Below, in pieces: positions 27,843 to 56,433 of a DNA stretch of 64,000 nt. The stretch is taken from the IMG/VR virus record IMGVR_UViG_3300018432_000001, positions 32,001-96,000 of that record; one strand, given 5' to 3'. A program made the position numbers and the translations under genes. Numbering within the stretch: position 1 is the first letter of the stretch; every line of letters starts with the position of its first letter. The notes beneath the pieces were generated by a model. It was not told where the DNA came from, made no database searches, and worked only from the letters and a program-made list of their open reading frames with translations. Source of the stretch: a virus.

Positions 27843-28526
27843 TCAGATGCGTTTCTTCGGCCGGTACTTTCCTCGCGTTTCGAGGTAGTCGTCGGGGATC
27901 TGCTCGACGGGGCCCGGGGCAGGTAGGTTCTTGATGTGCTTCTCGAAGTAGTCGGCGAGCGGTGAGCCGTGTTCCCAGTAGTACTTGGTGTAGTCACGCC
28001 AGGCGGTGACGACGGTCGGGTCGGTGAAGCGGATGTTGCGGTCTTGGACGCCGTGTTCGTCGTAGGTGTGGAGGTAGAGGACGGTGTCGTCCATGGTGCA
28101 GATCTCGGGGAGTTCGCTGCCGTAGGCGCGTTCGTCTTCGGTGATGGCGGTGGTGGGGAAGACGCGGATGGTGCCGCCGGAGACTTCGTTGCGGAGCTGG
28201 AGCAGGTGAAGTTCCCATTGGAGGTAGGGGCCGATGGGTTCGTCGACGATGCGAACGCGGCGGGCGGTGACACTGTGGTCGGCCATCTCGTTGTAGTGGG
28301 CTACCAGGTCGACCCGGCGCGCTTCGGTGAGCTGGAGGGCCAGGTCCCAGTTGCCGTGCTGGAAGGCCTGCCATGAGGCGTCGTGCGGCTCGGCGAAGTG
28401 CGTGGCGCGTTCGAGTTTCCAGAAGTCGGTGGCCTGCCAGAAGCGGGTGTTGAAGTCGTTGAAGAACTCCTCGTCCGGAAGGTATTCGCCGTCGGCGGCG
28501 TTCAGCGGCGGTGGAATGGTGGTCAT
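27843..28526 (-). CDS. DUF6879-like protein
   Basis: FWKLER..F.EP...SW.AF..G.W...RRVRIVDEP..PYLQWEL signature. Confidence 0.75.
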   Translation of the reverse strand: MTTIPPPLNAADGEYLPDEEFFNDFNTRFWQATDFWKLERATHFAEPHDASWQAFQHGNWDLALQLTEARRVDLVAHYNEMADHSVTARRVRIVDEPIGPYLQWELHLLQLRNEVSGGTIRVFPTTAITEDERAYGSELPEICTMDDTVLYLHTYDEHGVQDRNIRFTDPTVVTAWRDYTKYYWEHGSPLADYFEKHIKNLPAPGPVEQIPDDYLETRGKYRPKKRI

Positions 28527-28730
28527 CGCGGTGTTCCTTCCGGTGGGCATGGGACAGCCCGGGGGACGGAGGTCTCCCCGGGCTGTTCGGGTTGGGTTGC
28601 CGAGACGGTGGCTTCCAACCCTGTGTGTCTCATACTTCGCGTGCGCCAGCGTAGCATCCGCGAGACGTTCATGTTAGCCCGGTTGTTAGCAATACTTTGT
28701 GAGCATTGTCCGGTTCTGTACGATTTGTGT

Positions 28731-29369
28731 ATGTCGAACTGGGATGAACCGATCGAACTCGATGAGGACATCGAGCTGTGGGAGCAGCAGCCGGGCGAGA
28801 CCGACGAGCAGTACACCCTGTTCAAGATGTACATGAAGCTCTCCCCGCAGGCGGACACGGACACCCGTGAGGTGCTGCCGCGCCGGATCTCGGAGCTGTT
28901 CGGCAAGACTGAATTCTCCGACCGGCATGTCAAGCGCCTGGCGCGACGTTACTCGTGGGAGCCACGCGCCCGCGCCAACGACCTCGCGAAGGTGCAGTCG
29001 GTGCAGGGGCAGCTGGAGCATCACTGGCTCGTTCTCGTCGAGAACCGGCTGAAGCAGCTCGCGAAAGCCGAAGACATGATCTTCAAGGCCATGGAGGTGA
29101 TGGTCCAAGACGCCGAGTCCTGGAAACTGCGCGACCTCGTCATGTTCTGGGAGACGTCGGTGAAAGTCGGCAACGGCATCCTCGGGATGACGCGCCTCGG
29201 CGGTCCCGAGCAGGCCGCCGCCGCGCAGGTCATGGCCGGAGCCCGCGCCGAAGTCACCGTCGGCTCGGGCGATTCCCTCGACGCCCGCACCATGGAACTC
29301 GCCGAAGAACTCCGGCGCCGCGCCGAACTCGCCGCATCAGCACCGACGCCAGCGATCGAGCAGGCCTAA
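28731..29369 (+). CDS. terminase small subunit-like HTH protein
   Basis: WEQQPGET..QY..F..Y..L...RYSWEPRARAND pattern; TACGAT -10 box 6 nt before ATG (leaderless). Confidence 0.55.
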   Translation: MSNWDEPIELDEDIELWEQQPGETDEQYTLFKMYMKLSPQADTDTREVLPRRISELFGKTEFSDRHVKRLARRYSWEPRARANDLAKVQSVQGQLEHHWLVLVENRLKQLAKAEDMIFKAMEVMVQDAESWKLRDLVMFWETSVKVGNGILGMTRLGGPEQAAAAQVMAGARAEVTVGSGDSLDARTMELAEELRRRAELAASAPTPAIEQA

Positions 29370-32677: not shown

Positions 32678-34192
32678 CTAGAAGAGGTCCGTGGTGGCCC
32701 AGTCGACCGGGTCGGCGTGGATGCTGATCCCGATCGGCGGTTCGATGACTTCGCCTCGTCCGTATCCAGATCCCTTGAGGAGTCCTTGTGCGAGGTAGAC
32801 CGTGGCGTCGATGCGTCCGGGGCTCTCTCGGGAACCGGGCTGCCAGGTCGTCCACTGCTGGATGAGCTTGTCATGTTCGCCTACCAGGCGGATGTCGCCT
32901 TGTACCCAGTATTGGGCAACGGGGTCCGCGCGAATGCGTTTTCCGTATCGGGCGCGAACTTCATCTATTCGGGGGATGGGGACATCAGGCGGAATGGCAC
33001 CGTCTTCTTCCAGATCGGACCATGCTGACTGGATCTGGAGCTTGCACATCTCGCCGCCGAAGTTCGTCTCCACGAAGATGACGTCGGCCATCAGCTCGTA
33101 GGACAGGAGGGCGACCTCGCGGGCCCATTCGGTGGGGCTGGCCTGGCGGGACTTGTCGTCGGTGATGTAGCAGCGGTTGTCGTCGCCGAGGAATCCGGCG
33201 ACGATCCCGGCTTCGTCGCCGCCTGCGGTGCCGGAGGGGTCGACGGCGACGGCGACGCGGAGCTTGTCGGGGAGTGGTTCCCCGGGGCGGTGGCGGGATG
33301 CTTCGATCTGTTCGAGGTTGAGCAGGGCGCCCTCAACGGGCTGGGGGTCGCACTGGAAGAGGGCGAACCAGTCGCGCTTGGACAGCGAGGACTGTAGGCC
33401 GCCCCAGTGGGCGAGGAGCGCGTTCTTGTCCTTGTGAGGGATTTTCGGGTGGCCGAGGGGTTCGCCGAGGGCGCGGCCGAGCGGATCGTTCGCGTCGACG
33501 GCGATCGCCGGGAGGCGGATGATGTCCCACTCGTCGCCTTCGCGTTGCAGGAGGCGACCGGCGATGTCGTCTTCATGCCAGCGGGTGAGGACGAGGACGA
33601 TGGGTGCGCCGGGGGAGCCTCGGGTGATGAACGTGGAGGTCCACCAGTGGTCGACGGCGTCGCGGAAGATCTTCGATTCCGCTTCATCGCGGTCTTTGTG
33701 AGGGTCGTCACAGATGAGTAGGTCGCCGTCATGGCCCGTGAGGCCCGAGCCCACGCCGACAGTTTTCATGCCGCCACCGGCAGTGAGTTTCCAGGCTTGG
33801 GCGGTCCGCTGCTCCGGGGAGATGGTCAAGCCGAGCTTGTGGCCGTGCTCGCGGACGGCCTTGCGGACGTCGCGGCCCCAGTTCTTGGCCAGGTCTGAGC
33901 CGTAAGCGGCGGCGACGACCTGGTGGTGGGGACGATGGGCGAGCCACCACAGCGGGAACTTCTTGGTGACCAGTTCGCTCTTGCCGGTGCGAGGCGGCGC
34001 GAAGATCATGAGCTTGCGCTTGCCGCCGGGCTGGCCCAGCCGCGCCAGGCGCTCGCCGATGAGGCGGTGGTGGGGGCAGATCTGATAGCGCGGTTCAAGC
34101 CACGCGCCGAGACTGGCGGGATCGTGAAGGGCCTGGACGCGCGCGGCGTAGGCGTACAGCTCCGCGTCAGACAACTTCGAAAGATCCGGCAT
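32678..34192 (-). CDS. terL: terminase large subunit
   Basis: PPRTGKSEL Walker A, LLICDDPHKD Walker B, TRWHEDD, VAVDPSG nuclease motif. Confidence 0.95.
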   Translation of the reverse strand: MPDLSKLSDAELYAYAARVQALHDPASLGAWLEPRYQICPHHRLIGERLARLGQPGGKRKLMIFAPPRTGKSELVTKKFPLWWLAHRPHHQVVAAAYGSDLAKNWGRDVRKAVREHGHKLGLTISPEQRTAQAWKLTAGGGMKTVGVGSGLTGHDGDLLICDDPHKDRDEAESKIFRDAVDHWWTSTFITRGSPGAPIVLVLTRWHEDDIAGRLLQREGDEWDIIRLPAIAVDANDPLGRALGEPLGHPKIPHKDKNALLAHWGGLQSSLSKRDWFALFQCDPQPVEGALLNLEQIEASRHRPGEPLPDKLRVAVAVDPSGTAGGDEAGIVAGFLGDDNRCYITDDKSRQASPTEWAREVALLSYELMADVIFVETNFGGEMCKLQIQSAWSDLEEDGAIPPDVPIPRIDEVRARYGKRIRADPVAQYWVQGDIRLVGEHDKLIQQWTTWQPGSRESPGRIDATVYLAQGLLKGSGYGRGEVIEPPIGISIHADPVDWATTDLF

Positions 34193-34239
34193 AACCCGAA
34201 TCTACCTGAATGTCCGTTTTATTCAGCTATGAGACGAGT

Positions 34240-34547
34240 GCGCCGCGCTGCCATCGAGGTTAGAGCCGTGAAGCAGCGCGGCGCGTAATCTCCCGCGCAG
34301 AAACCCCTGCGCAGCCTGCACGGCCGTGTCCGATGCACGCCGTGCACGGCAGGGTCCCACCCTGCGATCTGCGATTGCGCCGGGCGCCCCGCCTGAACGT
34401 CGGGACCATCGGAGCCTCCGATGCTACCTGGAGGTGTGGCCTCACTGGTGAGCGCGTCACTTCTCACCGCACCCAGCGTCTGGGCTAACGTCCGGCTCCC
34501 CCCTTGCGCGTAGGGGGCCGACTGGCGGCGAGACCACGGTATGCCAG
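34240..34547. ncRNA. candidate multi-hairpin ncRNA
   Basis: About 11 back-to-back hairpins fill a 310-nt intergenic gap. Confidence 0.55.
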
Positions 34548-34556
34548 CTACCTGGT

Positions 34557-34799
34557 TTATAGCATCTGGTCAGGGGCGTTGCTCAGCCACAAGCCGAACT
34601 CGGTGGTGCCTTCGGCGTGCACGCTGGAGTGGCTGACCATCCACATCAGCGCGGCTTGGCGCGTGTCGGCCGTGGCACAGGCACTGCACGAGCTGCGCCC
34701 CTGGCAGCAGATGATCACCGGATAGCAGTATCCGATGTCGTCGAGCAGCCGGTTGAACGACCACAGGGGACTGCCCACCAGCAGTGCGTCAGGGTTCAT
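34557..34799 (-). CDS. small Cys-rich protein
   Basis: CCQGRSSCSAC; overlaps upstream stop. Confidence 0.55.
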   Translation of the reverse strand: MNPDALLVGSPLWSFNRLLDDIGYCYPVIICCQGRSSCSACATADTRQAALMWMVSHSSVHAEGTTEFGLWLSNAPDQML

Positions 34800-35148
34800 G
34801 CCCTGATCCTAAGCGCGGAGGTGGCGCGGTGAGGTCGTCTTCGCGGATGAAGTAGGCACGCGGCGCCGTCCACCACGCGATGGTCTGACCGCCGTCGCCG
34901 GTGAACGGCGCCTCGCCGTAGAGCACGAACACACCCGGGGCCACCGTGATGTACCCCTGGGGTGGATCGCTGCCATAGTCGTCCCGGTCGCGGCGACCCA
35001 CGTGGATCTGGATGCCCGGGTCGAGCTTGCCTTCCATGTCGGTGGCCCAGTCCGCCAGCCGCAGCATCAGCCGGGACTTCAGCGCGGGAGGACACACTAG
35101 GGTGATCGGCGGCTGGAACAGATAGGAATGGTCGACCTGCTCGCTCAC
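34789..35148 (-). CDS. standalone anchor-family domain (paralog of FN3-protein N-domain)
   Basis: GTG start after GGAGG; LKSRLMLRLADWA...YGEAPFTGDGGQTI...YFIREDDL. Confidence 0.7.
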   Translation of the reverse strand: MSEQVDHSYLFQPPITLVCPPALKSRLMLRLADWATDMEGKLDPGIQIHVGRRDRDDYGSDPPQGYITVAPGVFVLYGEAPFTGDGGQTIAWWTAPRAYFIREDDLTAPPPRLGSGHEP

Positions 35149-35492
35149 ATGACCTCCGGATCTTTGAGGAGGTCGGCGGCCGTGATCGTGAATGATGGGC
35201 TGTGGAACAGCTCGTGCCACCAGCGCCAGCGGATCGTCTTGCCCCGCGAGGTGAACGGCAGCGGCCCGTACTGGTCGAGCATCGGTGCTTCCAGCGTCCA
35301 GTAGGCCATGCCACTGCAGCCGCAGGAGGAGCCGGTGCGGTAGTGCAGGCGCACATCCGTGCGGCCCTCGGAGGTGGCGCACCACGAGACCAGCGCCTGC
35401 GCGAGACGCTGTTTCACTGCTTTGTCCTGCGGCAGGAGTTCGATCAGGCGCGGATCGCGGCGCACCGATACGGACAGCACGGGATCTCTCAT
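35145..35492 (-). CDS. standalone anchor-family domain (paralog of FN3-protein N-domain)
   Basis: IELLPQD...KQRLAQALVSW...GRTDVRLHY...YGPLPFT. Confidence 0.75.
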   Translation of the reverse strand: MRDPVLSVSVRRDPRLIELLPQDKAVKQRLAQALVSWCATSEGRTDVRLHYRTGSSCGCSGMAYWTLEAPMLDQYGPLPFTSRGKTIRWRWWHELFHSPSFTITAADLLKDPEVM

Positions 35493-35911
35493 GACTGCTC
35501 CACCTCGGCAGGCGTCGGTGTCCACGGGAGCACGATTCCGTCGCCTTTGCTTCTGGGCAGGTAGTGCAGATGGAGGTGGTCGACGGTCTGGGTCGCTTCG
35601 GCGCCGACGTTGATGATGAGGTTGAAAGGTCTGCGCTGGGCAAGGGCGTACTGCCAGGCGGCCATCCACATGTACGCGGTCGGCGAGTGGCTGACGGCGA
35701 CGCCGTGGTCTTTGGTGACGTGCAGGCGCGGGATGAACAGCACGTGGCCCTCGACGCGAGGGTTGAGGGGGACGATCGCGATGGCGTTGGTGAACTTGGC
35801 GACGACCTGGGCGGGCGCCTGACCGGTGATGATCTGGCAGAACGGGCACGGATCGCTGGAGCGGGCGTCCCCCTCGGTGGTGCTCGCTGCTTGACTGGAC
35901 GCCCGCGTCAT
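35489..35911 (-). CDS. HIT (histidine triad) family nucleotide hydrolase
   Basis: CPFC...PLNP..EGHVLFIP..H...NVG..A.QTVDHLHLH. Confidence 0.9.
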   Translation of the reverse strand: MTRASSQAASTTEGDARSSDPCPFCQIITGQAPAQVVAKFTNAIAIVPLNPRVEGHVLFIPRLHVTKDHGVAVSHSPTAYMWMAAWQYALAQRRPFNLIINVGAEATQTVDHLHLHYLPRSKGDGIVLPWTPTPAEVEQS

Positions 35912-36306
35912 GCTCCTGCTTCCACAGTGTATCCGATCGATTCTCGCGTCCACATCGAACATGGACCGGTCGTGTCGATGAGGTGATACTCACCGGATTC
36001 GACGATGCCGCCGGTGGCCAGCGGGTGGCGCTGGAGCCGCGCGCAGGCCGCGATGCCGATACGAGGCCGCGCGCCGGTACGTCGCTGGCGGGCAAGGTAC
36101 CGCTTCGCGCAGCGGCGCTCGGCCTTGGTCGTGCGCGGTTCGCACAGCAGCCCGGCAGCGCGGAGCTTCGGGCCGAGGACGTCGGTGAGGCAGGCGGACA
36201 GCTGCTCGAAAGAGTCCTGCAGGCCCTGAACGGCATCGCCCAGCGCCTGCCCCACGGTATGGAGGTACGCCCGCAGGGACGCGAACGGCATGTTTGAATC
36301 GCTCAT
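35908..36306 (-). CDS. hypothetical protein
   Basis: ORF track; ATGA overlap with HIT. Confidence 0.6.
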   Translation of the reverse strand: MSDSNMPFASLRAYLHTVGQALGDAVQGLQDSFEQLSACLTDVLGPKLRAAGLLCEPRTTKAERRCAKRYLARQRRTGARPRIGIAACARLQRHPLATGGIVESGEYHLIDTTGPCSMWTRESIGYTVEAGA

Positions 36307-36337
36307 CTATCCATGTTCGCGCACACCGGCTGCGAAA

Positions 36338-36910
36338 TCAGGGATAGAACCGCTTCGCTGCGCGCATTGCGGCGCGCTTGCACTTCCGGGCCGCCTTCAC
36401 CTGGCGGGTATTGCGGGTCACCACGGCCTTGGTGAACGAGCCGTCAGGGTCGTAGTGCATCTCCATGACCTGCGCGTGGTCGGTGTCCTCGTCGAACAGC
36501 CAGAAGTCATGGCCCTTCTTGCGGACGCGGCTGACCCACTCTCCCGGTTCGACCCATGCGATGCGGATGTCTTCCCCGGCGGCTTTGTTCCGCTTGTACC
36601 ACTCGAACTCGAAGCGGAGGTAGTCGCCGAGGGTGAGCTTGCCGTCCTCGTCGGTGTGGCGCTCGATGATGTGGACGCGTCCGATGTCCCTACCCGCCTC
36701 CACCGCTGGGACGATCACCTCATCGATCCATGTGGTGGGACGGTCGTGAATGAGGCTCAGGTCGCCCTTGAGGAACGCCTCATAGGCCTCGTCCTCATAG
36801 GCGACGCTGTAGGAGTCCAGGGTCTCCAGGCGCCACGCCGAGTCGGTGAACGAGGTGAAGTACTTGTGGAACTGCGGATCGTCCAGGTCGAAGATCTCAG
36901 TAACGCGCAT
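36338..36910 (-). CDS. DUF6879-like protein
   Basis: SAWRLETLDSY...RVHII...YLRFE...NKAAGEDIRI...HDFWLFD. Confidence 0.8.
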   Translation of the reverse strand: MRVTEIFDLDDPQFHKYFTSFTDSAWRLETLDSYSVAYEDEAYEAFLKGDLSLIHDRPTTWIDEVIVPAVEAGRDIGRVHIIERHTDEDGKLTLGDYLRFEFEWYKRNKAAGEDIRIAWVEPGEWVSRVRKKGHDFWLFDEDTDHAQVMEMHYDPDGSFTKAVVTRNTRQVKAARKCKRAAMRAAKRFYP

Positions 36911-37739
36911 GGTAGCTCCTGACGGCGTCGGCAACGATGGTCCAGAGGTCGTCCGCATTATCGTGCATGGGGAAATGGCCTGAGTTCTCGATGCCTTGGG
37001 CGATGACGCCGAGCTCCGCGAAGCGCTCGCGGTGGTGTTCGGGGAAGCCGCTGCGCTCGCCGTAGAGGTACACGGTGTCTCTGAGGTCGCTTTCGCGCGG
37101 GTGGTTGCGCTCGTTGTCGCACCAGCCGACGACCGAGGCGGCCAGATTGACGAGGAACTGGGGTTCGCAGGAGGCGAGGTCGGCGCCCCAGCGGCGCATC
37201 GCGGCGTCGTCGTCGGCGGCGACGTCGGTGATGAACTGCTCGACGGCGTCGGTGCCTTTCGCCAGGGACCGCGACGCCAGCGAGCAGTCCTCGCCGGTGA
37301 TGTTGCCTTCGATGGAGATGAAGCGGCCTCGCCGGTGCGTGGGGAGCCCATACCAGGCGCTCAAAGCGGGGAGCACCCCCATGGAGTGGGCGACGACGTG
37401 GACACGAGTTTCGTCGGTCATGTGCGCGACGAGTTCGAGCGCACCCTGCACGCATCCCGACAGCGTCGTGATGAGGCCGCCGGAGCGGTGGCTGCGGGCG
37501 AGATGGTTTTCAGGGGAGTCGCCTTGGCCGGGCAGATCGATGCTGATCAGGGCGTGGGTGCGCAGCGCTTCATGCCGGAAGGCGCTGTCGAACCAGTTGC
37601 GGTGGCAGCCGAGGCCGGGGACGAAGACGATCGGGTCGAGGAGGTTCATCTGGCCGTAAGCGATGCGGTCAGCTGCGGGCCGGAAGCTGAAGGTGAGAGG
37701 GAACACGGTCAGGTCATGGAGGTAGTGAACGATCTTCAC
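36897..37739 (-). CDS. alpha/beta fold hydrolase
   Basis: FVPGLG, IDLPGQGDS, AHSMG nucleophile elbow, SGHFPM; start may be ATG at 37649. Confidence 0.85.
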   Translation of the reverse strand: MKIVHYLHDLTVFPLTFSFRPAADRIAYGQMNLLDPIVFVPGLGCHRNWFDSAFRHEALRTHALISIDLPGQGDSPENHLARSHRSGGLITTLSGCVQGALELVAHMTDETRVHVVAHSMGVLPALSAWYGLPTHRRGRFISIEGNITGEDCSLASRSLAKGTDAVEQFITDVAADDDAAMRRWGADLASCEPQFLVNLAASVVGWCDNERNHPRESDLRDTVYLYGERSGFPEHHRERFAELGVIAQGIENSGHFPMHDNADDLWTIVADAVRSYHARY

Positions 37740-37748
37740 GCAGACGTC

Positions 37749-38072
37749 CTATCGATGGCGCATTCGGTTGACGATCCGGGCGGGCACGCGCAGATGCCTG
37801 CCTGACCCAGGGCTGCTGCAGCAGTCCCGGTCGCTCCAGGTGCCCTTGAACAGCCGCTTGGAAGTGTTCCGGCCGCCTTTGGGGCACGGCTTCCACTTGC
37901 GGATCAGACCGTGAACGAACCAGACGATAACGAACGCGCTGACGCCGATGATGAGCGCGTTGCGCAGCTCGGGGTAGGTCGTGACAGCCCACCATAGGGC
38001 GCTCCCGAGGGCCTTGACGACCATCAGCAGAAGAGCGCCGAAGGCCCCGAGGGCATTAAGAAGGCCGTCCAT
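37749..38072 (-). CDS. membrane protein with Cys-containing basic tail
   Basis: Two TM segments then WKPCP...RDCC..PGSGRHLR. Confidence 0.65.
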   Translation of the reverse strand: MDGLLNALGAFGALLLMVVKALGSALWWAVTTYPELRNALIIGVSAFVIVWFVHGLIRKWKPCPKGGRNTSKRLFKGTWSDRDCCSSPGSGRHLRVPARIVNRMRHR

Positions 38073-38608
38073 CAGCTGGCGTTGAGGGCGCTGTTGATCT
38101 GGGTCTCGGCTTCGTTGAGGGCGCCCGCGAGCTGTGGGGCGCCTTCGGCGGCCTCGGTAACTTGGCCGAGGATGCCCATCACCATGCTCACGGCCTCGGT
38201 CTTGGCGTGCTCGGCGACGGCCTGCAGGTTCCCGAGGAACTCGGTGATGCCCTGTGCTTTCGCACTGGCGGTAACGCATTGCTCTTGAGCTTCCTGCGCA
38301 TAGGACAGGGCCTGCTGGGCGACGTCGGCGACGTGGCCGCCGACGGCTTCGGCAGTGGCCGCATGGGCCTGTGCGGCCGAAACGTGGGCTTCAGCGGCGG
38401 TGACGGTGTTGTTCGCGGCCGTGGTGACCGTGTCGCTTTGGACACCGACAGCCCCGAGGGTCTCGATGAGGGTGTTGATGGCGGCGGTGATGGTCGCGGC
38501 GGCATCGGTGAGGTGTTCAGGGATGCGGGCCATTTCCCCGGCGAGGGTCTCGGCTTCGGCTTTGGCGGTGGTGACGGTGGTGAGGTGATCGTTCGCGGCG
38601 CCGCTCAT
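38072..38608 (-). CDS. Ala/Thr-rich all-helical coiled-coil protein
   Basis: GAAAGGA RBS; amphipathic heptads. Confidence 0.7.
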   Translation of the reverse strand: MSGAANDHLTTVTTAKAEAETLAGEMARIPEHLTDAAATITAAINTLIETLGAVGVQSDTVTTAANNTVTAAEAHVSAAQAHAATAEAVGGHVADVAQQALSYAQEAQEQCVTASAKAQGITEFLGNLQAVAEHAKTEAVSMVMGILGQVTEAAEGAPQLAGALNEAETQINSALNAS

Positions 38609-38748
38609 GACGTCCTTTCAGGTACTGGGTGATTCGTGAGGATATCGCACACCAGCATGCGACCGGTTTTCGCCCGATACCAGAGACAAGTACGTTTTTG
38701 AACTAGTTCGTGGTGCATTTACTCTTTTGTCCGGTTTATGCTGTTGTG

Positions 38749-39228
38749 GTGGATGACTGGCTGACGATCGCGCTTGCCCTGGCCCTGACGGCCAGGATCA
38801 CGCGGCTGATCACGTTCGACACGATCACCCAGCCGATCCGCGATCGGCTGCCCGGACTACTCGGTGCCCTGGTGCAGTGCCCCTGGTGCTCGGGGTTCTG
38901 GGCCGCCGTCGCCGTCGCCTTCTCCTGGCACTGGTGGGCCGACCAGACCTGGTGGCAGATCAGCGCGCTCATCGGCGCGCTCTCCTGGTTCGCCGGAGCC
39001 GTCTCCAACGCCGCGATGCCCGGCCAGCATGAAGTGGCCATGGTCGGACCCGTCGCGCTGCTCAACGCCGACGAGCCGGTCCGCGAGACCGTCGAGCGCG
39101 TCGAGACGACCAACGAGATCCACATCGACACGCGCGAGGAAGCCGATCCCGAGGAGATCGCCCGGATCGTCGTCGATGCCTTGCAGCGCGCCAAGTGGGG
39201 CCCGAACAAGGCGGGCGGGTCTGACTGA
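38749..39228 (+). CDS. DUF1360-like membrane protein
   Basis: ARITRLITFDTITQPIR...LVQCPWCSGFW; precedes portal. Confidence 0.8.
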   Translation: MDDWLTIALALALTARITRLITFDTITQPIRDRLPGLLGALVQCPWCSGFWAAVAVAFSWHWWADQTWWQISALIGALSWFAGAVSNAAMPGQHEVAMVGPVALLNADEPVRETVERVETTNEIHIDTREEADPEEIARIVVDALQRAKWGPNKAGGSD

Positions 39229-40967
39229 TGGGGTTCGGCTCGCAGCTCAAAAGCCTGACCGCCGCTATGTTTCGCGGCCAACCGGCCGGTGTTCCCACCG
39301 GCCGCATCGGCATGGGCTCGTACGCGCTGCAGGGCGCCACCGCCGAATGGCAGGCCGAAGCCGCTGAGCTGTACAACGTCGTCCCCGAGCTGCGCTACGG
39401 CATCTACTGGATCGCTTCCTCGGCCTCCCGCGCGACGCTCACCGTCGCCAAGAAGCCTACCGGCGAGCAGACCACCCCCGAGACCGTTTCCCGTGACAAC
39501 CCGGCGTGGGAGCCGCTCAACGAACTCGCGCCTACCGCCCCCGAGCAGGCGATGCTCATCTACCGCATCGTCACGCTCATGAAGCTCCTCGGGCGGTGGC
39601 GGCTCGTGGGCTTCGATACCGACGAGGGCAAGCGCCAATGGGTCGTCACCTCCGAATACGACTACAACGAATCGGGCAACGGCGTCAGCGTCCACGACGC
39701 CTCCAGCGGCGTCAACTACACCCTCAGCCGCGACCAGGTGTGGTCGATCCCGATGCTCATGCCCCACCCCATCCGCTCCTCCGAGCCCGACGCCCCCACC
39801 CGCGCGCTCATCCCCACCCTCCACGAACTCATCGACCTGTCCGGACACGTCCAGACCGCTGCCAAATCGCGCCTGGCCGGTGCGGGCCTGCTCCTCATTC
39901 CCAACCAGGTCTCCACCGTCGCCCCCGGCCAGTCCAGCGGCGTCAACCCACCCGATGGCGACCCGGCGATGAACGCGCTCATGCGCACCGCCCAGGCCAG
40001 CCTGCGCTCCCCCACCGACGTTTCCCGCCACCTGCCGGTCATTTTCAAAGGCCAGCAGGAAGCCCTCAACGCCGTCCGACACCTCAGCCTCCAAACCCCC
40101 TTCGACGAACGCGTCGACTCCCTGCGCACGTCAGCGGTGCGGCGCATTGCGATCGGCCTCGACCTCCCTGCCGAGGTCCTCAGTGGACTTGGTGATCTGA
40201 ATCACTGGACAGCGTGGGCTGTGGAGGCCTCCGGCCAGCGCGTGAACATCGAGCCCACCCTCAACTTCGTGTGCAGGGAACTGACGACGAAGTTCCTGCA
40301 GCCCGCACTCAAGGCCATGGGCCTGCCCGACGCCGACCAGTACATGGTCTCGTTCGACCCGGCCGGGGCCCAGTCCGAGGCGAACAAGGGCGACTTGGCG
40401 CTGGCGGCCTATGAGCTAGGCGTCATCTCGGCCGACGCGGCGCGTAGCGCCTTGGGCTACGGCTCGGAGGACGCGCCGCAGCCCGGGTCGGTGCCGCCGG
40501 TGCAGATGGGCGTTCCCGGTGAGCGGGAAGGGGGCCTGGTCCCCAGTGCCATGGACCGCCTTGCCGACCGGCTGCGCGACCAGACCAACCGTGCCGGTCC
40601 TGCTTCGGGGACGCAGTCGCAGGTGGGTCTCGAATCGCTGGCAGCGGACGCCGGATGGGCGGCCTGCGCCGACATCGGGGCGAGGCGCGCGCTGCGCCGG
40701 TGCGGGCAGTACCTCCTGGGATCTTCGCGGGCGCTGCGCGGCCGGTACCGCGATACGCCCTTGGAGGCGATGCACACCCAGATCCGCGCTGAGCCCGACA
40801 CGGTCGCCTCTGCGCTGCGGGACGGGTTCGCCGAATTGGCCGAGGCCGCGCCGCAGTTGGTCGACCCCGTAGCCAGCTATGTCCGCTTTAGGATAGAAAC
40901 AGGTACTAAGCACGATAAGTCCGAAATGTGCAGGTATCTTCTAGAAGAGGCGACCACGAGGGGGTAG
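39228..40967 (+). CDS. portal protein
   Basis: WQAEA..LY..VPELRY, SRLAGAGLLLIP, RRIAIGLDLPAEVL.G....NHW.AW as in cluster-B-like portals. Confidence 0.85.
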   Translation: MGFGSQLKSLTAAMFRGQPAGVPTGRIGMGSYALQGATAEWQAEAAELYNVVPELRYGIYWIASSASRATLTVAKKPTGEQTTPETVSRDNPAWEPLNELAPTAPEQAMLIYRIVTLMKLLGRWRLVGFDTDEGKRQWVVTSEYDYNESGNGVSVHDASSGVNYTLSRDQVWSIPMLMPHPIRSSEPDAPTRALIPTLHELIDLSGHVQTAAKSRLAGAGLLLIPNQVSTVAPGQSSGVNPPDGDPAMNALMRTAQASLRSPTDVSRHLPVIFKGQQEALNAVRHLSLQTPFDERVDSLRTSAVRRIAIGLDLPAEVLSGLGDLNHWTAWAVEASGQRVNIEPTLNFVCRELTTKFLQPALKAMGLPDADQYMVSFDPAGAQSEANKGDLALAAYELGVISADAARSALGYGSEDAPQPGSVPPVQMGVPGEREGGLVPSAMDRLADRLRDQTNRAGPASGTQSQVGLESLAADAGWAACADIGARRALRRCGQYLLGSSRALRGRYRDTPLEAMHTQIRAEPDTVASALRDGFAELAEAAPQLVDPVASYVRFRIETGTKHDKSEMCRYLLEEATTRG

Positions 40968-40973
40968 GGCGCG

Positions 40974-42692
40974 ATGCCAGTAACCGTGAACACTGACCTG
41001 CCGCTTCACCCTGAACGCGATACCGCCTGGGATGGCGATGCCGCTCGTGCGGCAATGGCGCGCCGCTGCTCCTCTGAAGACGGCGTCATGGCCGACTGCA
41101 TGGGGCCGGGATTCGTATGGCGCGACGGCGAGGCCGACGCCTCCACCATCGGCGCCTATTCGCTGCCGGTCGCCGACGTGTTCTCCGGCGACCTCCATCT
41201 GGTCCTTTCCGGTGTGCAGGCGGCGGCCAACGCCATCTCCCCGGCCCGGGAACCCGGCGGACCGCGCGCCATGAGCGGCTCCGAATCGGAGCTGTCTTCC
41301 ATGCGCAGCGCTGTGGAGACCATCCTGCGCCGTTTCGCACGCGAATTCGACGACGACACCATCCGCGCCCCCTGGGAAGAAGAGCCCGAGTCCGAACGCG
41401 CCTCGGCCGCCGCGCCGGTGGCCGCCGCCGGATGCTGCGGCGGCTGCGGGTGCTCCGACACCAAGACCACTGACAACACCGAGGCCGAGCGGCCCGAACC
41501 GAAGCAGGAGGGGGAGGCTGCCATGTCCGACATCGCCAGCGTCCAGAACATCGAGTTGGGGCGTCCCCGCAGCCGCGTCATTCGCGCCTCGGCCACCGGC
41601 GGTGAATGGCGTCCGCCCGTCGACCACTTCGCCAACCCGCACCTGAACGAACCGACCAAGTTGACCGTCACCGCCGACGGCCGGGTCTACGGCCACCTCG
41701 CCACCTGGGACCAGCCGCACATCGGCTACGACGGCAAACTGGTCTACCCGCCGCGCAACCGCGACGGCGCATACGGCTACTTCCGCCAGTCGCAGGTCGT
41801 CACCGCCGACGGCTCTGTCGTCCCGGTCGGCATCCTCACCATGAACACCGGTCACGCCGACGAGTCGCTCTCGGCTGACGCCGCCGCCGCGCACTACGAC
41901 AACACCGGCACGATGATGGCCGCCTGCAACGTCGGCGAGGACTCGATCGGCATCTGGCTGGCCGGATCGATGCTGCCCGACGTGTCCCCGGAACTGCGCA
42001 ACCGCTTCAGCCTGGCGCGCGTCTCCGGCGACTGGCGCCAGCCCAAGCCCGGTGCGCCGCTGGAGCTCATCGCCGCCTTGTCGGTGCCCAACCCGGGATT
42101 CCCCGTGCGGCAGAACGCCGAGCTTCTGGCCTCTGACCGGCTGACGCTGGCCGCTTCGGGCCTGGTCAAAGCCGAAGCGGGCGAGATCCGCACCTTCATC
42201 TGCGCGGGCGCCAGCGTCGTCGACGAGGCCCAGCAGGCCGCGCTCACCGACGCCGTCCGCACCGCGATCGGCCCCGACTTCATCGGGCAGGTCAAGGACG
42301 CCGTCATCGAAGCGCTCAAGTCGCAGGCCGACCTCGCTGCGAAGGCACCGGAGCCTGTGGTTTCGGGTCCTCCAGAAGCACCGGCGCCCGAAAGCCCTGC
42401 CGAGCCTGCGGCCGAAGCGGCCACCGAGGCCCCTGCCGACGAAGAACTGCCCGGCCAGGACCCGCTTCCCATGCCCGACCCCGCTCCCGCCGAGGCCGCT
42501 CCGGCGGCCACCGACGCGGGCGGTGCCGGTGCACTTCCTGCCGTGGACTCTGCCGCCGCACCGGCACCGCCCGTCCCAGTCGAAGCCGCACAGGTCGCCG
42601 CCAGCGCCCTGGCCAAGCACCTGCTGCAGTACCGGTCGACCACGGCCCGGCAGAAGCTGCTCGCCGCTGCGGGTCGCGGAAAAAAAGCCTGA
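40974..42692 (+). CDS. capsid maturation protease (with extra N-domain and P/A/E-rich tail)
   Basis: GRVYGHLATW, GIWLAG, VSGDWR, LELIAALSVPNPGFP; lies between portal and capsid. Confidence 0.75.
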   Translation: MPVTVNTDLPLHPERDTAWDGDAARAAMARRCSSEDGVMADCMGPGFVWRDGEADASTIGAYSLPVADVFSGDLHLVLSGVQAAANAISPAREPGGPRAMSGSESELSSMRSAVETILRRFAREFDDDTIRAPWEEEPESERASAAAPVAAAGCCGGCGCSDTKTTDNTEAERPEPKQEGEAAMSDIASVQNIELGRPRSRVIRASATGGEWRPPVDHFANPHLNEPTKLTVTADGRVYGHLATWDQPHIGYDGKLVYPPRNRDGAYGYFRQSQVVTADGSVVPVGILTMNTGHADESLSADAAAAHYDNTGTMMAACNVGEDSIGIWLAGSMLPDVSPELRNRFSLARVSGDWRQPKPGAPLELIAALSVPNPGFPVRQNAELLASDRLTLAASGLVKAEAGEIRTFICAGASVVDEAQQAALTDAVRTAIGPDFIGQVKDAVIEALKSQADLAAKAPEPVVSGPPEAPAPESPAEPAAEAATEAPADEELPGQDPLPMPDPAPAEAAPAATDAGGAGALPAVDSAAAPAPPVPVEAAQVAASALAKHLLQYRSTTARQKLLAAAGRGKKA

Positions 42693-43384: not shown

Positions 43385-45136
43385 ATGACGCTCGACGAAC
43401 TCATCGAGGCGCTGAACGGTCTCGATGCCGAGGAGCGGCTCGCGCGAATCGAGCAGCTCGTCGGCGAAGTCTCTGAAGACGACCTGGCCGCCATCCGCGA
43501 CGCCGCCATCGAAGCCGCGCAGGCCTACATCGACGAAGTTCCCAGCGACGAGGCATCGATCGCCCGCGCTGAGGCCCTCGCCGTGATCCTCGACGCGATC
43601 GACCGGCGCACCGGCGATGCCGAGACCGCAACCGAAGCCACCGAAGCCGAGGAAGCCGACCTCGAAGCCACAGCCGCTCGTGCGGCCTCGGCCGAAGAGG
43701 TGGCCGAGCCCGCCCGCGAAGGCGAACTCGTCGCCGCTGATGGAGCTCCGCAGACCCAGAAGGCGAGTAATCAGATGCCGATCCCGCTGGCCCAGGCTGC
43801 CTCCGTCGCCCCGACGCAGGTGACCGCAGGCGAACGCACCGACCGTGTGAAACACACCGTCGTGGCCGCAGGCGATCTTCCCGACTATCGCGGGGGCACC
43901 GAGCTGCCGGACACCAAGGCGATCGCCGCCGCTGTCCAGGCCGGTATGACCGTCGTCTCCCGCTCCCAGGCCCCGGGCGTGCGCCAGGGCCTGTGCTCCA
44001 TCAAGCGCGAGGCACCCGACCACCTCAACTACACCGGAGCCAGCGACTGGCTCAAGGTCGACGAGGTCACCAACCAGAAGAACCTCCCGGGCAAGTCGCT
44101 CGTCGCCGCTGGCGGATGGTGCGCCCCCTCCGAGGTGCTTTACGACGTTTGTCCAATTCCTGTCTCTAGGGACGGAATGGTCGATTTGCCGACCATCACC
44201 GCGACGCGCGGCGGCGTCAAGTACTCGCGTCGGCCCGACTTCGCCCCGTTCTGGTCCCTTGTGGGCTTCGAACAGACGGAAACGGACGCTATCGCCGGAG
44301 TTGAGAAGCCTTGCTTCGAAATTCCGTGTCCTGATGATTTGTCCGAATGCCGGATGGACATCGAGGGCATCTGCCTCATCCAGCCGCTGCTCACCGAGCG
44401 CGGCTGGCCGGAGAAAGTCGAGGAATTCGTCGAGTACGCGATGCTTGCGCACGCGCACCGCATCAACGCCCGGCGCATCGAGCGCATGGTCGACATGGCC
44501 ACCTGGGCCATCACCGTTCCCGGCCCCGTCCGCAGTCCCGCCGACAACACGCTGCCCTCCACGGGCTACACCGTCGATGACCACGGCCCGGGTGCGTTCG
44601 AATCGCTTCTGAGCGTGCTCGAACTGCAGGTCGAGTTCTTCCGCTACTCCATGCGCCTGAGCCGCACCGCGCTGCTCGAAGGCATGGCGCCGTACTGGTT
44701 GCGGGGCCTGCTCCGTGCCGACATCTCCAAGAAATTGGGGATCGACAACCGCTGGGGCATCGCCACCGACGAGATCCTCGACCGGTGGTTCGCCGACCGA
44801 GGTGTCCGAATTCAGTGGGTTTACGACTGGCAGGACAGTATGTCCGAGCAGGACCCCGCTGCGTTCGGTGGTACGCCTCCGACCAAATGGCCGGAAGAGG
44901 TGTCGATCCTCCTGTGGGAGCCGGGCACGTACTTTGCCCTGCAGCAGGACGTCATCAACCTCACTGGGGTGTATGACCGAATCGACCTGCAGCGCAACAT
45001 CTACACCCGTCTGTTCACCGAAGAGGGATTCGCGGTGTGTGCCCGTTGCGGGCGTTCCATGCTCATCACCATTCCTCTGTGCCCGAACGGACTTTCCGGC
45101 TCGCAGGAGCTCACCGTCTGCTCGACGACCGCGTAA
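43385..45136 (+). CDS. major capsid (hexamer) protein with N-terminal scaffold-like region
   Basis: LVAAGGWCAPSEVLYD, KPCFEIPCP, IQWVYDWQ, LFTEEG as in Rosebush-type capsids. Confidence 0.9.
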   Translation: MTLDELIEALNGLDAEERLARIEQLVGEVSEDDLAAIRDAAIEAAQAYIDEVPSDEASIARAEALAVILDAIDRRTGDAETATEATEAEEADLEATAARAASAEEVAEPAREGELVAADGAPQTQKASNQMPIPLAQAASVAPTQVTAGERTDRVKHTVVAAGDLPDYRGGTELPDTKAIAAAVQAGMTVVSRSQAPGVRQGLCSIKREAPDHLNYTGASDWLKVDEVTNQKNLPGKSLVAAGGWCAPSEVLYDVCPIPVSRDGMVDLPTITATRGGVKYSRRPDFAPFWSLVGFEQTETDAIAGVEKPCFEIPCPDDLSECRMDIEGICLIQPLLTERGWPEKVEEFVEYAMLAHAHRINARRIERMVDMATWAITVPGPVRSPADNTLPSTGYTVDDHGPGAFESLLSVLELQVEFFRYSMRLSRTALLEGMAPYWLRGLLRADISKKLGIDNRWGIATDEILDRWFADRGVRIQWVYDWQDSMSEQDPAAFGGTPPTKWPEEVSILLWEPGTYFALQQDVINLTGVYDRIDLQRNIYTRLFTEEGFAVCARCGRSMLITIPLCPNGLSGSQELTVCSTTA

Positions 45137-46651: not shown

Positions 46652-48181
46652 ATGGCTGAGACTTCTACCGTCCGAGGCCGGATGGCCCGGTTCACGCGCC
46701 TGGACGACATGGGTCGTCCGCTGTACGGACCGGGCAACCAGGCCGTCACCAAGGGCATCATTTCGGTCACCTACACCCCGAACGTCACCGAAGGCGAAGC
46801 CACCTCGGTCACGAACTTCGCGGGCGAACAGTGCATCTCGGCCCCCGCGCCGTGCGCGACCATCGACAACTGGACCGTCGGCGTCGAATTCTGCGCCGTC
46901 GACCCTTGTGTCGTCCTGATGATCTACCCGTCCTGGATTCCGATTTATGACGATTTCGGGTCGATCAAGGGTTTCCAGATCGTCGGCGGCCTGTCGTGCG
47001 ACGTCGGTTTCGCCCTGGAGATCTGGGGCCAGATCGGATCGGCAGGGTCGGCCATCCAGTGCGGACCGGGCGCCGTCTCGGGCTCCACGTACTGGCTCGC
47101 GCCGCGCCTCGTGGGCGCCGCTCCCGGCGAAATCACGATCAGTAACGAAGCGACTTCATTCACGTTCAACGGGACCACCACGAGCCCCGTGGGTTGGCGC
47201 CGTGGCCCGTACCTGGTCGACATCGTCAACGGCGTGCCCTCGGTCCTGCGCGACCCGGTCGACTCGGCCGCGCAGCTCGTGGAGTTCACCACGCAGGTGC
47301 GTCCGCCCGAGCCCACCAACGGCTGCGTGGAGCTGCCGCGACCGGTCCCGGAGGAAGCGAGCGTCATCATCGACCGCGTTCCCACCGACGACACCGGCAT
47401 GTGCGCGCGCTTGATCATCGACAACCATGGATTTGGCCCGGTGACGGTGAACTGGGGCGACGGTTCGGACCCCGAGACCAGCGGCGACTGCTCGACCATC
47501 ACCCACTGCTACGCCACGCCGGGCACCTACACGGTGTGCGTCGCCGACCAGCAGACTCCGGCAATCTCGACCTGCCGCGACATCGTCGTGCCGATGCCTG
47601 CCGACCAGCCGACCATGACGCTGGCCGTCGACCCGACCGACGACATGTGTGTCATCGCCACCATCGACATGCCGCCGCAGTCCGATGGACGCGTCGAAGT
47701 CACCTGGGGCGACGACACTGCCGCGTCCACGGTCGAAATCACGCCGGGCACGCCAGTGGAAGTGCGCCACTGCTACGCCACGCCGGGCGTCTACACCGTC
47801 CGTGCCGTGCGCGTGGAGCAGCCGGACTACTACACCACCGCAACCGTCGTGGTGCCGGTCATCGCCAACCCCATGGTGTCGGCCGCCGTCGACGGCCAGG
47901 TGGTCACGCTGACCGTTGACAACAACGGCAACGGGCTGACCACTGTGGAGTGGGGCGACGGCACCACGACCTCCGGTCCGAACACGGACGGAGGCAACGT
48001 CCAGCACACCTACGCCGCCGACGGCACCTACTCGATCACGGTCACTTCGGTGTCCAACCCACTCTCGACCACCACGGTGCAGGTCACCATCGGTGCCGCT
48101 CCAGGCCTCCAGGCCGGAGTCGATGCCGATGAAGGCGATGTGTCGGGCATGACGGTCGAAGTCACCTGGAACAACGCCTAG
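46652..48181 (+). CDS. major tail (tube) protein with three PKD/Ig domains plus a C-terminal half domain
   Basis: VRGRMARFTRLDD.G, FCAVDP, FALEIW, WRRGPY; three WGD...HxY...GxYT repeats. Confidence 0.85.
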   Translation: MAETSTVRGRMARFTRLDDMGRPLYGPGNQAVTKGIISVTYTPNVTEGEATSVTNFAGEQCISAPAPCATIDNWTVGVEFCAVDPCVVLMIYPSWIPIYDDFGSIKGFQIVGGLSCDVGFALEIWGQIGSAGSAIQCGPGAVSGSTYWLAPRLVGAAPGEITISNEATSFTFNGTTTSPVGWRRGPYLVDIVNGVPSVLRDPVDSAAQLVEFTTQVRPPEPTNGCVELPRPVPEEASVIIDRVPTDDTGMCARLIIDNHGFGPVTVNWGDGSDPETSGDCSTITHCYATPGTYTVCVADQQTPAISTCRDIVVPMPADQPTMTLAVDPTDDMCVIATIDMPPQSDGRVEVTWGDDTAASTVEITPGTPVEVRHCYATPGVYTVRAVRVEQPDYYTTATVVVPVIANPMVSAAVDGQVVTLTVDNNGNGLTTVEWGDGTTTSGPNTDGGNVQHTYAADGTYSITVTSVSNPLSTTTVQVTIGAAPGLQAGVDADEGDVSGMTVEVTWNNA

Positions 48182-48191
48182 GAGGGCTGCC

Positions 48192-49493
48192 ATGACCGTC
48201 ACCATTCAATGGGACGCCGATGCTCCATTGACGGCCCAGCCCGACGCGGGCACCGCAACGAAGGTGTACACGACTGCAGGGCCCGGAACCGTGACCATCA
48301 CCGACGAGGCCATCGGCGGTGACAGCGTCACGCTGGACTACACCGTGCCGCTGGAAATGACCACAGTGGTGCCGACTCCGAACACGGCCGATTCGGCCGG
48401 GACCGCCGAAGAGCGCACCATCTCGGTCGCTGGCGAGGGCTTCCCGGCCAGCATGGCGGGCACCGTGGCCATCGCCACGGGCGTGCCCGGCGCGTTCGGG
48501 ACCACGCTGGTGTCGACCTCGGCCACCACCAACACCGCCGGGATCTTCACCGACGTCGACGTGGTGGTGCCAAGCGATGCTGCCGCCGGTGACTACCACC
48601 TGGAAGTCAGCTTCGGGGCCATCGTGGACCTGTCGGCTGCGATCACGCTCACCAACACCGAGCTCGCTGCGCCGACGTCGCTCGCGTCGCCGTCGCAGAC
48701 CTCGACCACGGTCACCCTGACCTGGGCGGCAGTGACCGACGCCGAAACGTATGTGGTCCGTTCCTCGCCTGCAGGCGCTGGTACTTGGGTCGAGCGTGCC
48801 CCGGTGGCGGTTCTGACCGACACGGTCTCGGCGCTCACCGCGTTGACGAGCTACGACTTCCAGGTCAAGGCGCAGGCCACGGGCTCGACCGATTCGCCGT
48901 GGTCGACCACGCTCACGCAGTCCACGACCGCGCAGCCGGTGCTGGACGCACCGGCGAACCCATCGGCGGGCACGCCGACGACCACGACCATCCCGTTCTC
49001 CTGGGATGCGGTCACCGACGCCGAAACGTACACCGTCGAATGGCGGATCAGCCCGGCCGGAGCCTGGACCGCAATCGACAGCATCGCCACCACCAACACC
49101 ACGGTCAGCGGCCTGGACCCGAATACGACGTACGACCTGCGGGTCAAGGCCGTCGCTGATGGATTCACGGACTCTCCGTTCTCTGCAGTCGTCACCGAGT
49201 CCACCGATTCGCTGGGCACGTTGGCCGCTCCGACCGGTATCGCCAGCCCGTCGCAGACGGCCACGACGATCGACCTCACGTGGGACGCGGTTCCCAATGC
49301 CACCAGCTACGGCATCGAACGGTCGCCTGCGGGGGCCGGGACGTGGGTCGAAGTGCAGACCGCTGGGACGAACGCTGCGACGGTGACCGGCATGGTCGCC
49401 AGCACTTCATATGACTTCCGGATTTCGGCTCGCGCCGCCGGATGGGTCGACTCGGACTGGTCGGCCACGTTCACCCAAGCCACCACCGCTTAA
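48192..49493 (+). CDS. Ig/FN3-array protein (half PKD + Ig + 3 FN3)
   Basis: AGGAGG RBS; three APxx...WxAV...Y...L...TxYD.xVxA repeats. Confidence 0.85.
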   Translation: MTVTIQWDADAPLTAQPDAGTATKVYTTAGPGTVTITDEAIGGDSVTLDYTVPLEMTTVVPTPNTADSAGTAEERTISVAGEGFPASMAGTVAIATGVPGAFGTTLVSTSATTNTAGIFTDVDVVVPSDAAAGDYHLEVSFGAIVDLSAAITLTNTELAAPTSLASPSQTSTTVTLTWAAVTDAETYVVRSSPAGAGTWVERAPVAVLTDTVSALTALTSYDFQVKAQATGSTDSPWSTTLTQSTTAQPVLDAPANPSAGTPTTTTIPFSWDAVTDAETYTVEWRISPAGAWTAIDSIATTNTTVSGLDPNTTYDLRVKAVADGFTDSPFSAVVTESTDSLGTLAAPTGIASPSQTATTIDLTWDAVPNATSYGIERSPAGAGTWVEVQTAGTNAATVTGMVASTSYDFRISARAAGWVDSDWSATFTQATTA

Positions 49494-51750: not shown

Positions 51751-52638
51751 ATGCCTATCGTGCTCCAGCCGATCGATCAGATCGCTAAAAAGGAGTTGGC
51801 TCAGCAGCTGGCCTGCTGGGCGCGGGCCGCCAACGGCCTGACCGACGTCGCCGTCCAGTACGGTACCTGCTGCGTCTCGCCGACCGGCGAGACGTTGGGG
51901 CGTTGGACGATCCCCAACGACCTCTGCACCACGTACGGTGAGCTTCCGTTCACCGGAAATAACGGGGAGACGATCGTCTGCCCGCCCGTCGGGTCGGCCG
52001 AGTACGTCTCGTACTACATCTACGACGAAGACGTCGACCCGATCGACGTGGACACCTGCACGCCGCTGGTGGCGCTCGATGCGCCGACTGCGCTCGCGGC
52101 CGGGACCCCGACCGACACCACCATCCCGCTGACCTGGGTCGCCTCGGCGAACGCCAACGGATACACGGTGTCGTACTCCTCGGACTCGGGCACGACCTGG
52201 CTGGAGGTACAGGCCACCGGCAGCCCGTTCACGCTGACGGGGCTGACGCCGGAGACGACGTACACCATCCGCATCCGCGCGACCGACTCGACGAATACGT
52301 TCGCGAAGTCGCCGTGGACGAGCACGGTCACCGCCACCACGGAGTCTTCGCTGCCTGAGCTGGACGTCCCAGAGAACCTGGCGACCGGTACTCCAGCGGC
52401 GACCGAGATGCCGCTGACCTGGGATGCGGTCACGAACGCCGTGTCGTACCACGTCCAGTACAAGACGACGGCATCGTCGACGTGGCTGGACTTCGCGACC
52501 GAGCCGGTCACGCCGTCGACCACGGTCACGGGCCTGGTGACCGCAACCAGCTACGACTTCCGGGTGCGCGCCAACGCCGACGACATCTCGTTCTCGGACT
52601 CGGACTACAGCGCGCCGGTCACCGAGACCACCGCGTAA
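51751..52638 (+). CDS. anchor domain + 2 FN3 virion decoration protein
   Basis: N-terminal ~105 aa closely matches 49512 gene; two FN3. Confidence 0.85.
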   Translation: MPIVLQPIDQIAKKELAQQLACWARAANGLTDVAVQYGTCCVSPTGETLGRWTIPNDLCTTYGELPFTGNNGETIVCPPVGSAEYVSYYIYDEDVDPIDVDTCTPLVALDAPTALAAGTPTDTTIPLTWVASANANGYTVSYSSDSGTTWLEVQATGSPFTLTGLTPETTYTIRIRATDSTNTFAKSPWTSTVTATTESSLPELDVPENLATGTPAATEMPLTWDAVTNAVSYHVQYKTTASSTWLDFATEPVTPSTTVTGLVTATSYDFRVRANADDISFSDSDYSAPVTETTA

Positions 52639-52644
52639 GCGACA

Positions 52645-52689
52645 TGGAGGTGCCCGGCTCTCCTCGAAAGAGAGAGCCGGGCACCTCCA
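52645..52689 (+). terminator. long hairpin terminator or processing site
   Basis: TGGAGGTGCCCGGCTCTC...GAAA...GAGAGCCGGGCACCTCCA. Confidence 0.7.
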
Positions 52690-52721
52690 GTTCCAACTTA
52701 TCGTCCCTTTTGGAGGGGTAT

Positions 52722-53752: not shown

Positions 53753-53792
53753 ATGAATGACGTGGGTTTTTATTGCTAAGGAGGTCAGGCTG

Positions 53793-56212: not shown

Positions 56213-56433
56213 TCCCGTTGATCGTGAGTCTGGTCTACACCGTTGCCATGCTGTTCACCGCACGCATGCTCTACCGCAACGCCGTCACCAGCGGCTTCGA
56301 CGTCACCACTCCCGCGCGCCTATTCATGGGCGTCGGCTTCGCCCTGATCTATGCGCTGGCATGGCCGCTGCTGCTGCTGGGCATCGGGGCGGTGCGTTTC
56401 ATCGTGCACCGCGCCAAGGGAGACGTCGCGTGA
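56209..56433 (+). CDS. small two-TM membrane protein
   Basis: ATGA/GTGA overlaps on both sides; two hydrophobic helices. Confidence 0.65.
   Translation: MIPLIVSLVYTVAMLFTARMLYRNAVTSGFDVTTPARLFMGVGFALIYALAWPLLLLGIGAVRFIVHRAKGDVA

Follow-up and report, generated by a model that had tools for sequence, protein, structure and literature searches.

A domain of about 100 amino acids is present in four homologous copies in the genome of an uncultured actinobacterial phage. Two copies are fused to arrays of FN3 repeats, in proteins of 741 and 295 amino acids encoded within the virion module, and the two others are the bare proteins A and B, encoded upstream of the large terminase gene terL. The domain represents a new small family and most likely acts as a new type of anchor in a form of phage decoration that is itself known. 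Architecture and gene context indicate that the fused copies probably dock their FN3 arms on the virion, which is the best-supported reading for them. For the four copies together the reading tentatively preferred here, held at somewhat less than even confidence, is that of a constant virion-docking module with exchangeable arms, A and B being old specialised paralogues that probably form a heterodimer.

The window, a stretch of 64,000 nucleotides, corresponds to bases 32001-96000 of a 142,477-bp IMG/VR record with DTR that is rated complete. The GC content is ~66%. No isolated phage is closely related in nucleotide sequence, a 104-bp stretch matching Tsukamurella phage TPA2 being the sole hit. 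The phage has a capsid protein of the actinophage "major capsid hexamer protein" type, whose best tblastn identities (33-40%) are with Microbacterium and Gordonia phages. The gene directly 3' of the capsid gene codes a 478-aa protein whose sole match, phrog_779 (function unknown), is confined to the last ~185 residues; it is probably a pentamer-type capsid protein carrying a large insertion.

The minus-strand genes diverge from the virion module (Table 1) in the order 178-aa gene, alpha/beta hydrolase gene, DUF6879 gene, 132-aa gene, HIT gene, B, A and, after ~600 nt, terL. The product of the HIT gene belongs to the HIT superfamily (56.5 bits to PF01230 for a cut-off of 21.5), an assignment that applies to this neighbour only and to neither A nor B. 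The segment separating A from terL (34193-34788) is without a credible gene, its GC3 of 0.61 in the terL-strand frame not being coding-type. A scan of positions 34000-39300 for promoters and terminators gave nothing exceeding shuffled sequences. Residues 127-243 of the product of 28383-29369 (+) match phrog_6299 (E 1.2e-8), which makes this gene a terS candidate ~3.3 kb from terL, on the opposite strand and apart from terL and the portal gene.

Table 1. Features of the window relevant to the four domain copies.
Feature	Position	Strand	Remarks
Large terminase (terL)	32678-34192	-	PF03237 and PF17289; next gene downstream of A
Standalone copy A, 119 aa	34789-35148	-	GTG start; motifs PPITLVCPP...YGEAPFTGDGGQTIAWW
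Standalone copy B, 115 aa, Trp-rich	35145-35492	-	ATG start; motif YGPLPFTSRGKTIRWRWWH
HIT-family gene	35489-35962	-	PF01230, E 4.4e-15
DUF6879 gene	36338-36922	-	PF21806, E 7.6e-35
DUF1360	38710-39228	+	virion module
Portal	39228-40967	+	virion module
MuF-like	40974-42692	+	virion module
Capsid hexamer protein	43385-45136	+	virion module
phrog_779 protein, 478 aa	45152-46588	+	virion module
Major tail protein with PKD	46652-48181	+	virion module
433-aa protein, 3 FN3	48192-49493	+	virion module
741-aa protein, N-terminal domain copy and 7 FN3	49512-51737	+	virion module
N-terminal domain copy of 741-aa protein	49512-49826	+	profile match
Arm of 741-aa protein, seven FN3 repeats	49827-51737	+	PF00041, E 1.2e-53, 7 stretches
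295-aa protein, N-terminal domain copy and 2 FN3	51751-52638	+	virion module
N-terminal domain copy of 295-aa protein	51751-52065	+	profile match; six Cys
Arm of 295-aa protein, two FN3 repeats	52066-52638	+	PF00041, E 3.4e-15, 2 stretches
PKD protein	within 52482-53474 reading frame, start not fixed	+	virion module
Fibre-like protein	53757-55361	+	virion module
Head-tail adaptor	55373-56212	+	phrog_783
phrog_810	56361-57095	+	virion module
Tape measure	58740-62528	+	inferred from 1262-aa size and position

An earlier note on this DNA had recognised the four copies from the sequence, and their homology is borne out. BLASTP relates B to the N-domain of the 295-aa protein (E 5e-12, 37% identity), A to the same N-domain (E 4e-7) and A to B (E 3e-6). 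A profile built from the four copies detects each of them at E 2e-50 to 7e-46 and reveals no fifth copy at E <= 10 anywhere in the 142,477 bp. The alignment of the four is significant and covers ~95 residues, the fused copies spanning residues 1 to about 105 of their proteins. Eight residues are invariant among the four copies (W23, D32, Y62, F67, T68, G72, I75 and D94 in the numbering of the 295-aa protein), and W23, D32, Y62-G63, F67-T68, G72, I75 and D94 are invariant across the three clades of the family described below; they could form the core of the fold instead of a common binding site.

Both bare ORFs lie where the note had placed them, on the strand opposite to the fused genes, and its wording of a leftward HIT operon is apt: overlaps of 4 nt join the HIT gene to B and B to A. 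A and B are real genes since they have coding-type GC3 (0.82-0.84), are each preceded by a Shine-Dalgarno sequence (for A, GGAGG 6 nt upstream of the GTG), start at the same position as their orthologues (for A: P0006, P0011-13, P0016, P0064, P0071 and P0074) and are under purifying selection, with dN/dS against three relatives of 0.13-0.22 for A and 0.35-0.58 for B.

A few relatives depart from the usual length. The A gene overruns its usual stop in L010:917-1849 (+), coding 310 aa, and in P0011, of 161 aa; the extension is Arg-rich and of low complexity, and in L010 runs on into another segment of ~110 aa. Loss of the stop codon, misassembly or a genuine fusion could explain it. The B copies of G001:C1:81190-81414 and P0018 (86 aa) cover only profile positions 47-121; it appears that either the first strand and one half of helix 1 are missing from them or their translation begins at an upstream start that was not called.

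The family is rare and phage-bound. A word-indexed search of 5.8 billion clusters yielded 15 short and 41 long relatives, and when 1.84 billion representatives were searched exhaustively with HMMER no more than 35 clusters reached E <= 1e-3; all members found are metagenomic. The domain gave no tblastn hit at E <= 1 among 50,697 deposited phage genomes, and no prophage copy was detected when B was scanned against prokaryote genomes, one for each species. A metagenome scan with the alignment as query recovered a 138-kb relative and nothing otherwise. This genome (G001) and a 141-kb one (G002) each carry two bare and two fused copies, while a 73-kb genome that is maybe a fragment (G003) has two bare and one fused copy. 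The A/B pair is thus constant while the number of fused copies varies.

A quick maximum-likelihood tree with aLRT supports, computed from few columns and unsure in its deep order, separates three clades: the fused copies (53 rows, support 85), A (96) and core B (96). Three single standalone forms with long branches fall outside of them. The N-domain of the 741-type is nested within the 295-type clade, showing that the gene with the long arm arose recently by duplication of the short-arm one.

AlphaFold2 predicts an alpha/beta fold for residues 1-110 of the 295-aa protein (44-sequence alignment, pLDDT 88.5, pTM 0.82), with the order strand, helix, two strands, helix, hairpin, strand. The model features strand 3-7, helix 10-23, strands 36-38 and 51-54, helix 56-62 and strand 86-90, with the hairpin around the invariant PFT..G..I motif. 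The model of B (pLDDT 77) has its elements in the same order as the fused copy, preceded by a disordered 15-residue amino-terminal extension.

Neither sequence nor structure searches relate the domain to a characterised family, non-structural ones included (Pfam, PHROGs, PDB, Foldseek and BFVD). In Pfam, A, B and the two N-domains gave no match at E <= 0.01 and none of 18 family members at E < 0.06; the four copies gave none in PHROGs. The best hit of the domain profile among PDB sequences has E 0.58, that of Foldseek against the PDB E 1.2 and that in BFVD E 0.08. ESM Atlas returned no usable match for the fused copy or for B, its own model of B being poor. With either model the top score of VIA-align among 48,161 chains was Z 4.2, attained by substrate domains of oxidases and by alpha/beta sandwiches of a generic kind; such values count as background, so the fold is called unmatched and is not proven new. 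Hoc, pb10, Soc, gpD, Dec and Psu were considered for comparison, and no decoration protein is among the Foldseek, VIA-align and BFVD matches listed, an absence that excludes no relation.

The fused proteins share a simple plan. The domain starts at residue 1-2 in 53/53 fused relatives and is their sole non-Ig part. The arm behind it consists of one to about 10 FN3 repeats, in proteins of 194, about 295, 378, 412, 576, 650, about 741 and 1063 aa, or of PKD arrays, in proteins of about 694-725 aa. The 741-aa and 295-aa proteins stop flush at the final FN3 repeat. Comparisons of 295-type orthologues always show higher conservation of the N-domain than of the arm (for example 0.95 versus 0.73, 0.78 versus 0.27 and 0.72 versus 0.42). 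A constant amino terminus joined to a variable distal region is typical of phage fibres and decoration proteins, and here leaves the N-domain as the only candidate anchor.

Precomputed Pfam matches in the carboxyl-terminal arm of ~290-aa relatives are F5_F8_type_C (P0048 and P0049), CHB_HEX_C (P0048 and P0050) and BNR (P0052). They show that the displayed part is swapped among these close relatives (P0048-P0052).

Four Cys residues set the fused clade apart: Cys22, Cys59 and Cys77 are each present in 53/53 members and Cys103 in 52/53. At the first three of these positions A and B carry D/S/T, F/L and W, while the fourth has no counterpart in them. The four invariant Cys fit two disulfides or a Cys4 metal site, which may stabilise an extracellular version of the domain.

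The fused genes belong to the virion module, where they are located after the major tail gene and before that of the head-tail adaptor; in two distant lineages (L017 and L020) they directly adjoin the adaptor gene (phrog_783). A distant fused member, P0070, sits among non-structural genes. The assignment of L017:1-1833 as a major tail protein (phrog_4971) was rejected: the match, at profile positions 180-281, concerns FN3 alone because the same profile region matches the 433-aa FN3 protein of the window (48192-49493). Matches of this kind do not mark tail-tube genes, and no adjacency to such a gene is claimed in L017. In L020 (7771-10660) the distant fused protein P0063 (576 aa) is encoded in inverted orientation beside the adaptor gene, and its other flank holds two LPMO_10 (AA10) genes and an amine-oxidase-like gene; the contig bears phage tail genes.

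The standalone proteins display opposite charges. A is acidic (pI 4.8 in the window, 4.1-5.3 in 7/8 lineages), like the fused N-domains (pI 4.1-5.1), whereas B, which bears an RWRWWH motif, is basic (pI 9.0 in the window, 8.6-9.7 in 8/10 lineages). The 4-nt overlap of the B and A genes is kept in lineages that are only ~30% identical (window, L011/12 and L013-15), and that of the HIT and B genes is present in the window and in L013. The combination of coupled translation and opposite charge suggests that A and B form a heterodimer.

The A/B pair, or a single standalone copy (L021-L024), is always found in the operon upstream of terL, which includes DUF6879 and usually HIT and diverges from the DUF1360-portal operon. 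Synteny with HIT is observed in L011, L013-15 and L022, DUF6879 adjoins the standalone copies in L011, L013, L021, L023 and L024, and the terL neighbourhood is conserved in L008-L015 and L023. The HIT, DUF6879 and alpha/beta hydrolase genes that accompany A and B are clearly non-structural. No paper mentioning DUF6879 was found in the literature, nor anything on phage HIT genes close to the terminase.

The earlier note had regarded the domain as a virion anchor displayed with 7, 2 or 0 FN3 arms for tunable decoration. The idea of an anchor fits the fused copies, given their amino-terminal position in all 53 relatives, the better conservation of the N-domain than of the arms and the virion-module location of the genes. 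It does not extend to the part given to the bare copies. A and B are not simple zero-arm variants because they form their own clades, lack the four Cys, are opposite in charge and belong to another operon, with non-structural genes; to judge from their sequences they are old, separately conserved and specialised paralogue clades and not fused proteins that lost their arms. The note's alternative, that the bare copies might be hetero-oligomer partners, would account for clade, Cys, charge and operon at least as well.

The favoured mechanism is that the alpha/beta domain would be a phage-specific docking module. Its fused form, at the extreme amino terminus of virion surface proteins and with the four invariant Cys as a brace, would hold exchangeable FN3 or PKD arms of varied length on the particle, attached to the capsid, neck or tail. 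The arms would be the variable displayed part, probably providing weak adhesion like other phage Ig-like domains. Acidic A and basic, Trp-rich B would be made in equal amounts from their overlapping genes in the HIT/terL operon, most likely as a heterodimer whose subunits meet at the same interface as the fold employs elsewhere. Their role would be in particle assembly, where they would either fill the docking site without an arm or serve as its adaptor. This docking reading is favoured by the homology of the four copies, the common fold of the fused copy and B, the amino-terminal position and conservation of the N-domain and the location of the fused genes, and further by the Cys found only in fused copies, the kept 4-nt overlap, the charges of A and B and the constancy of their pair. 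It is weakened by the non-structural genes in the A/B operon, by those surrounding P0070 and by the possibility that the residues invariant across the clades merely reflect the fold core.

A different account of A and B is possible although rather unlikely: they might be non-structural intracellular partners of HIT and DUF6879, active in host takeover, counter-defence or as packaging accessories, that have only ancestry and fold in common with the anchor. An operon upstream of terL with HIT, DUF6879 and alpha/beta hydrolase is kept in several divergent lineages, the HIT-B overlap recurs in L013, and the bulky hydrophobic residues replacing the Cys of the fused clade are expected of a cytoplasmic version; single standalone forms also occur in lineages where no fused copy was seen, on contigs that are short. 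However, A and B have no likeness to a known enzyme, regulator or anti-defence family in Pfam and PHROGs, the motif common to the three clades suggests a common molecular activity, and terL is a late morphogenesis gene.

Somewhat less probable is a homotypic socket, in which B, alone or with A, would be a virion-resident or bridging partner with which the acidic N-domains of the FN3 proteins pair, like fold to like fold, in a pseudo-symmetric heterodimer or ring; the bare copies would then be the socket and not compete for it. This would make use of the contrast between basic B and the acidic A and fused N-domains, of the translational coupling of B and A and of the constancy of their pair beside a variable number of fused copies. 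Yet charge complementarity by itself is weak evidence, the distant B-type protein P0080 is acidic, and proteins of only ~115 aa with short disordered tails have no obvious anchor of their own.

It is improbable, if conceivable, that one fold serves as a pairing system linking DNA packaging to decoration. A and B, made with TerL, would occupy or form a docking site on the procapsid or portal vertex, where the Cys-braced acidic N-domains would dock or replace A by pairing of like folds, the paralogues acting as plug, socket and placeholder.

Still more doubtful is an inverted arrangement of the fused proteins, with the N-domain as a distal head that binds a ligand or the cell wall, FN3 repeats as spacers and the carboxyl-terminal repeat as the attachment, A and B being soluble versions of the head. 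The invariant polar and aromatic residues W23, D32, Y62 and D94 could make a pocket, and many extracellular enzymes use FN3 arrays as linkers. The carboxyl-terminal parts are nevertheless the least conserved and are exchanged for discoidin (F5_F8_type_C), CHB_HEX_C, BNR or PKD domains in close relatives, the opposite of the behaviour of an anchor, and the proteins end at the last FN3 with nothing beyond it.

A role of A and B as small terminase (TerS), to which their position upstream of terL on the same strand might point, is hardly credible and was rejected: the domain is also found at the front of FN3-array proteins, about 67 kb separate A and B from the genome ends (DTR), phrog_6299 is matched by 28383-29369 instead, and A and B are alpha/beta sandwiches without HTH or long oligomerisation helices that match no TerS family in Pfam or PHROGs.

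If the docking reading is true, the domain would be an undescribed module for phage surface display that is small, self-folding and amino-terminal, and that accepts arms of various Ig-like types, between one and about ten domains long. A new fold would then join the short list of decoration-protein anchors and possibly provide a handle for protein display on actinophage particles. The bare acidic/basic pair beside terL is the unusual part, and offers a testable case of how one ancestor could give rise both to a module that binds the virion and to soluble factors with assembly or accessory roles. Should A and B be unrelated to the virion, the finding would come down to a new family of small proteins with no known function, carried by a narrow group of soil phages that are uncultured.

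Among decoration proteins of actinophages, Rosebush gp17 and Patience gp29 are without known structural relatives (PMC7150772). These phages have a related capsid gene set, with the hexamer-type major capsid protein. Their decoration proteins lack FN3 arms, in contrast to the proteins described here, and no sequence relation was found by tblastn in 50,697 phage records at E <= 1.

Ig-like decoration of siphophage tails is represented by the carboxyl-terminal domain of lambda gpV, T5 pb6 and SPP1 gp17.1*, in which an Ig domain is fused to the tube protein. The genes studied here resemble them in lying beside the major tail gene and, presumably, in displaying FN3/Ig domains on the virion. They differ in that each arm belongs to a protein distinct from the tube and has a docking domain of its own.

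The fused proteins have the architecture of the Ig-like decoration class, a non-Ig N-domain followed by 7 or 2 FN3 repeats, as do the 53 relatives. In this class Hoc of T4 and pb10 of T5 combine a small non-Ig capsid-binding domain with a projecting string of Ig-like domains, and are dispensable adhesins, not cement (PMC7602432). No likeness to them was found in sequence or fold (best Z 4.2, E 0.08), and the anchor of Hoc, as described from its crystal structure, is carboxyl-terminal while that proposed here is amino-terminal and braced by Cys. The common element would be the constant anchor with displayed Ig arms, virion attachment being suggested here by the position of the genes in the structural operon. 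To this plan the present phage adds arms of up to 7-10 FN3 repeats, two arm lengths on one type of anchor and bare paralogues.
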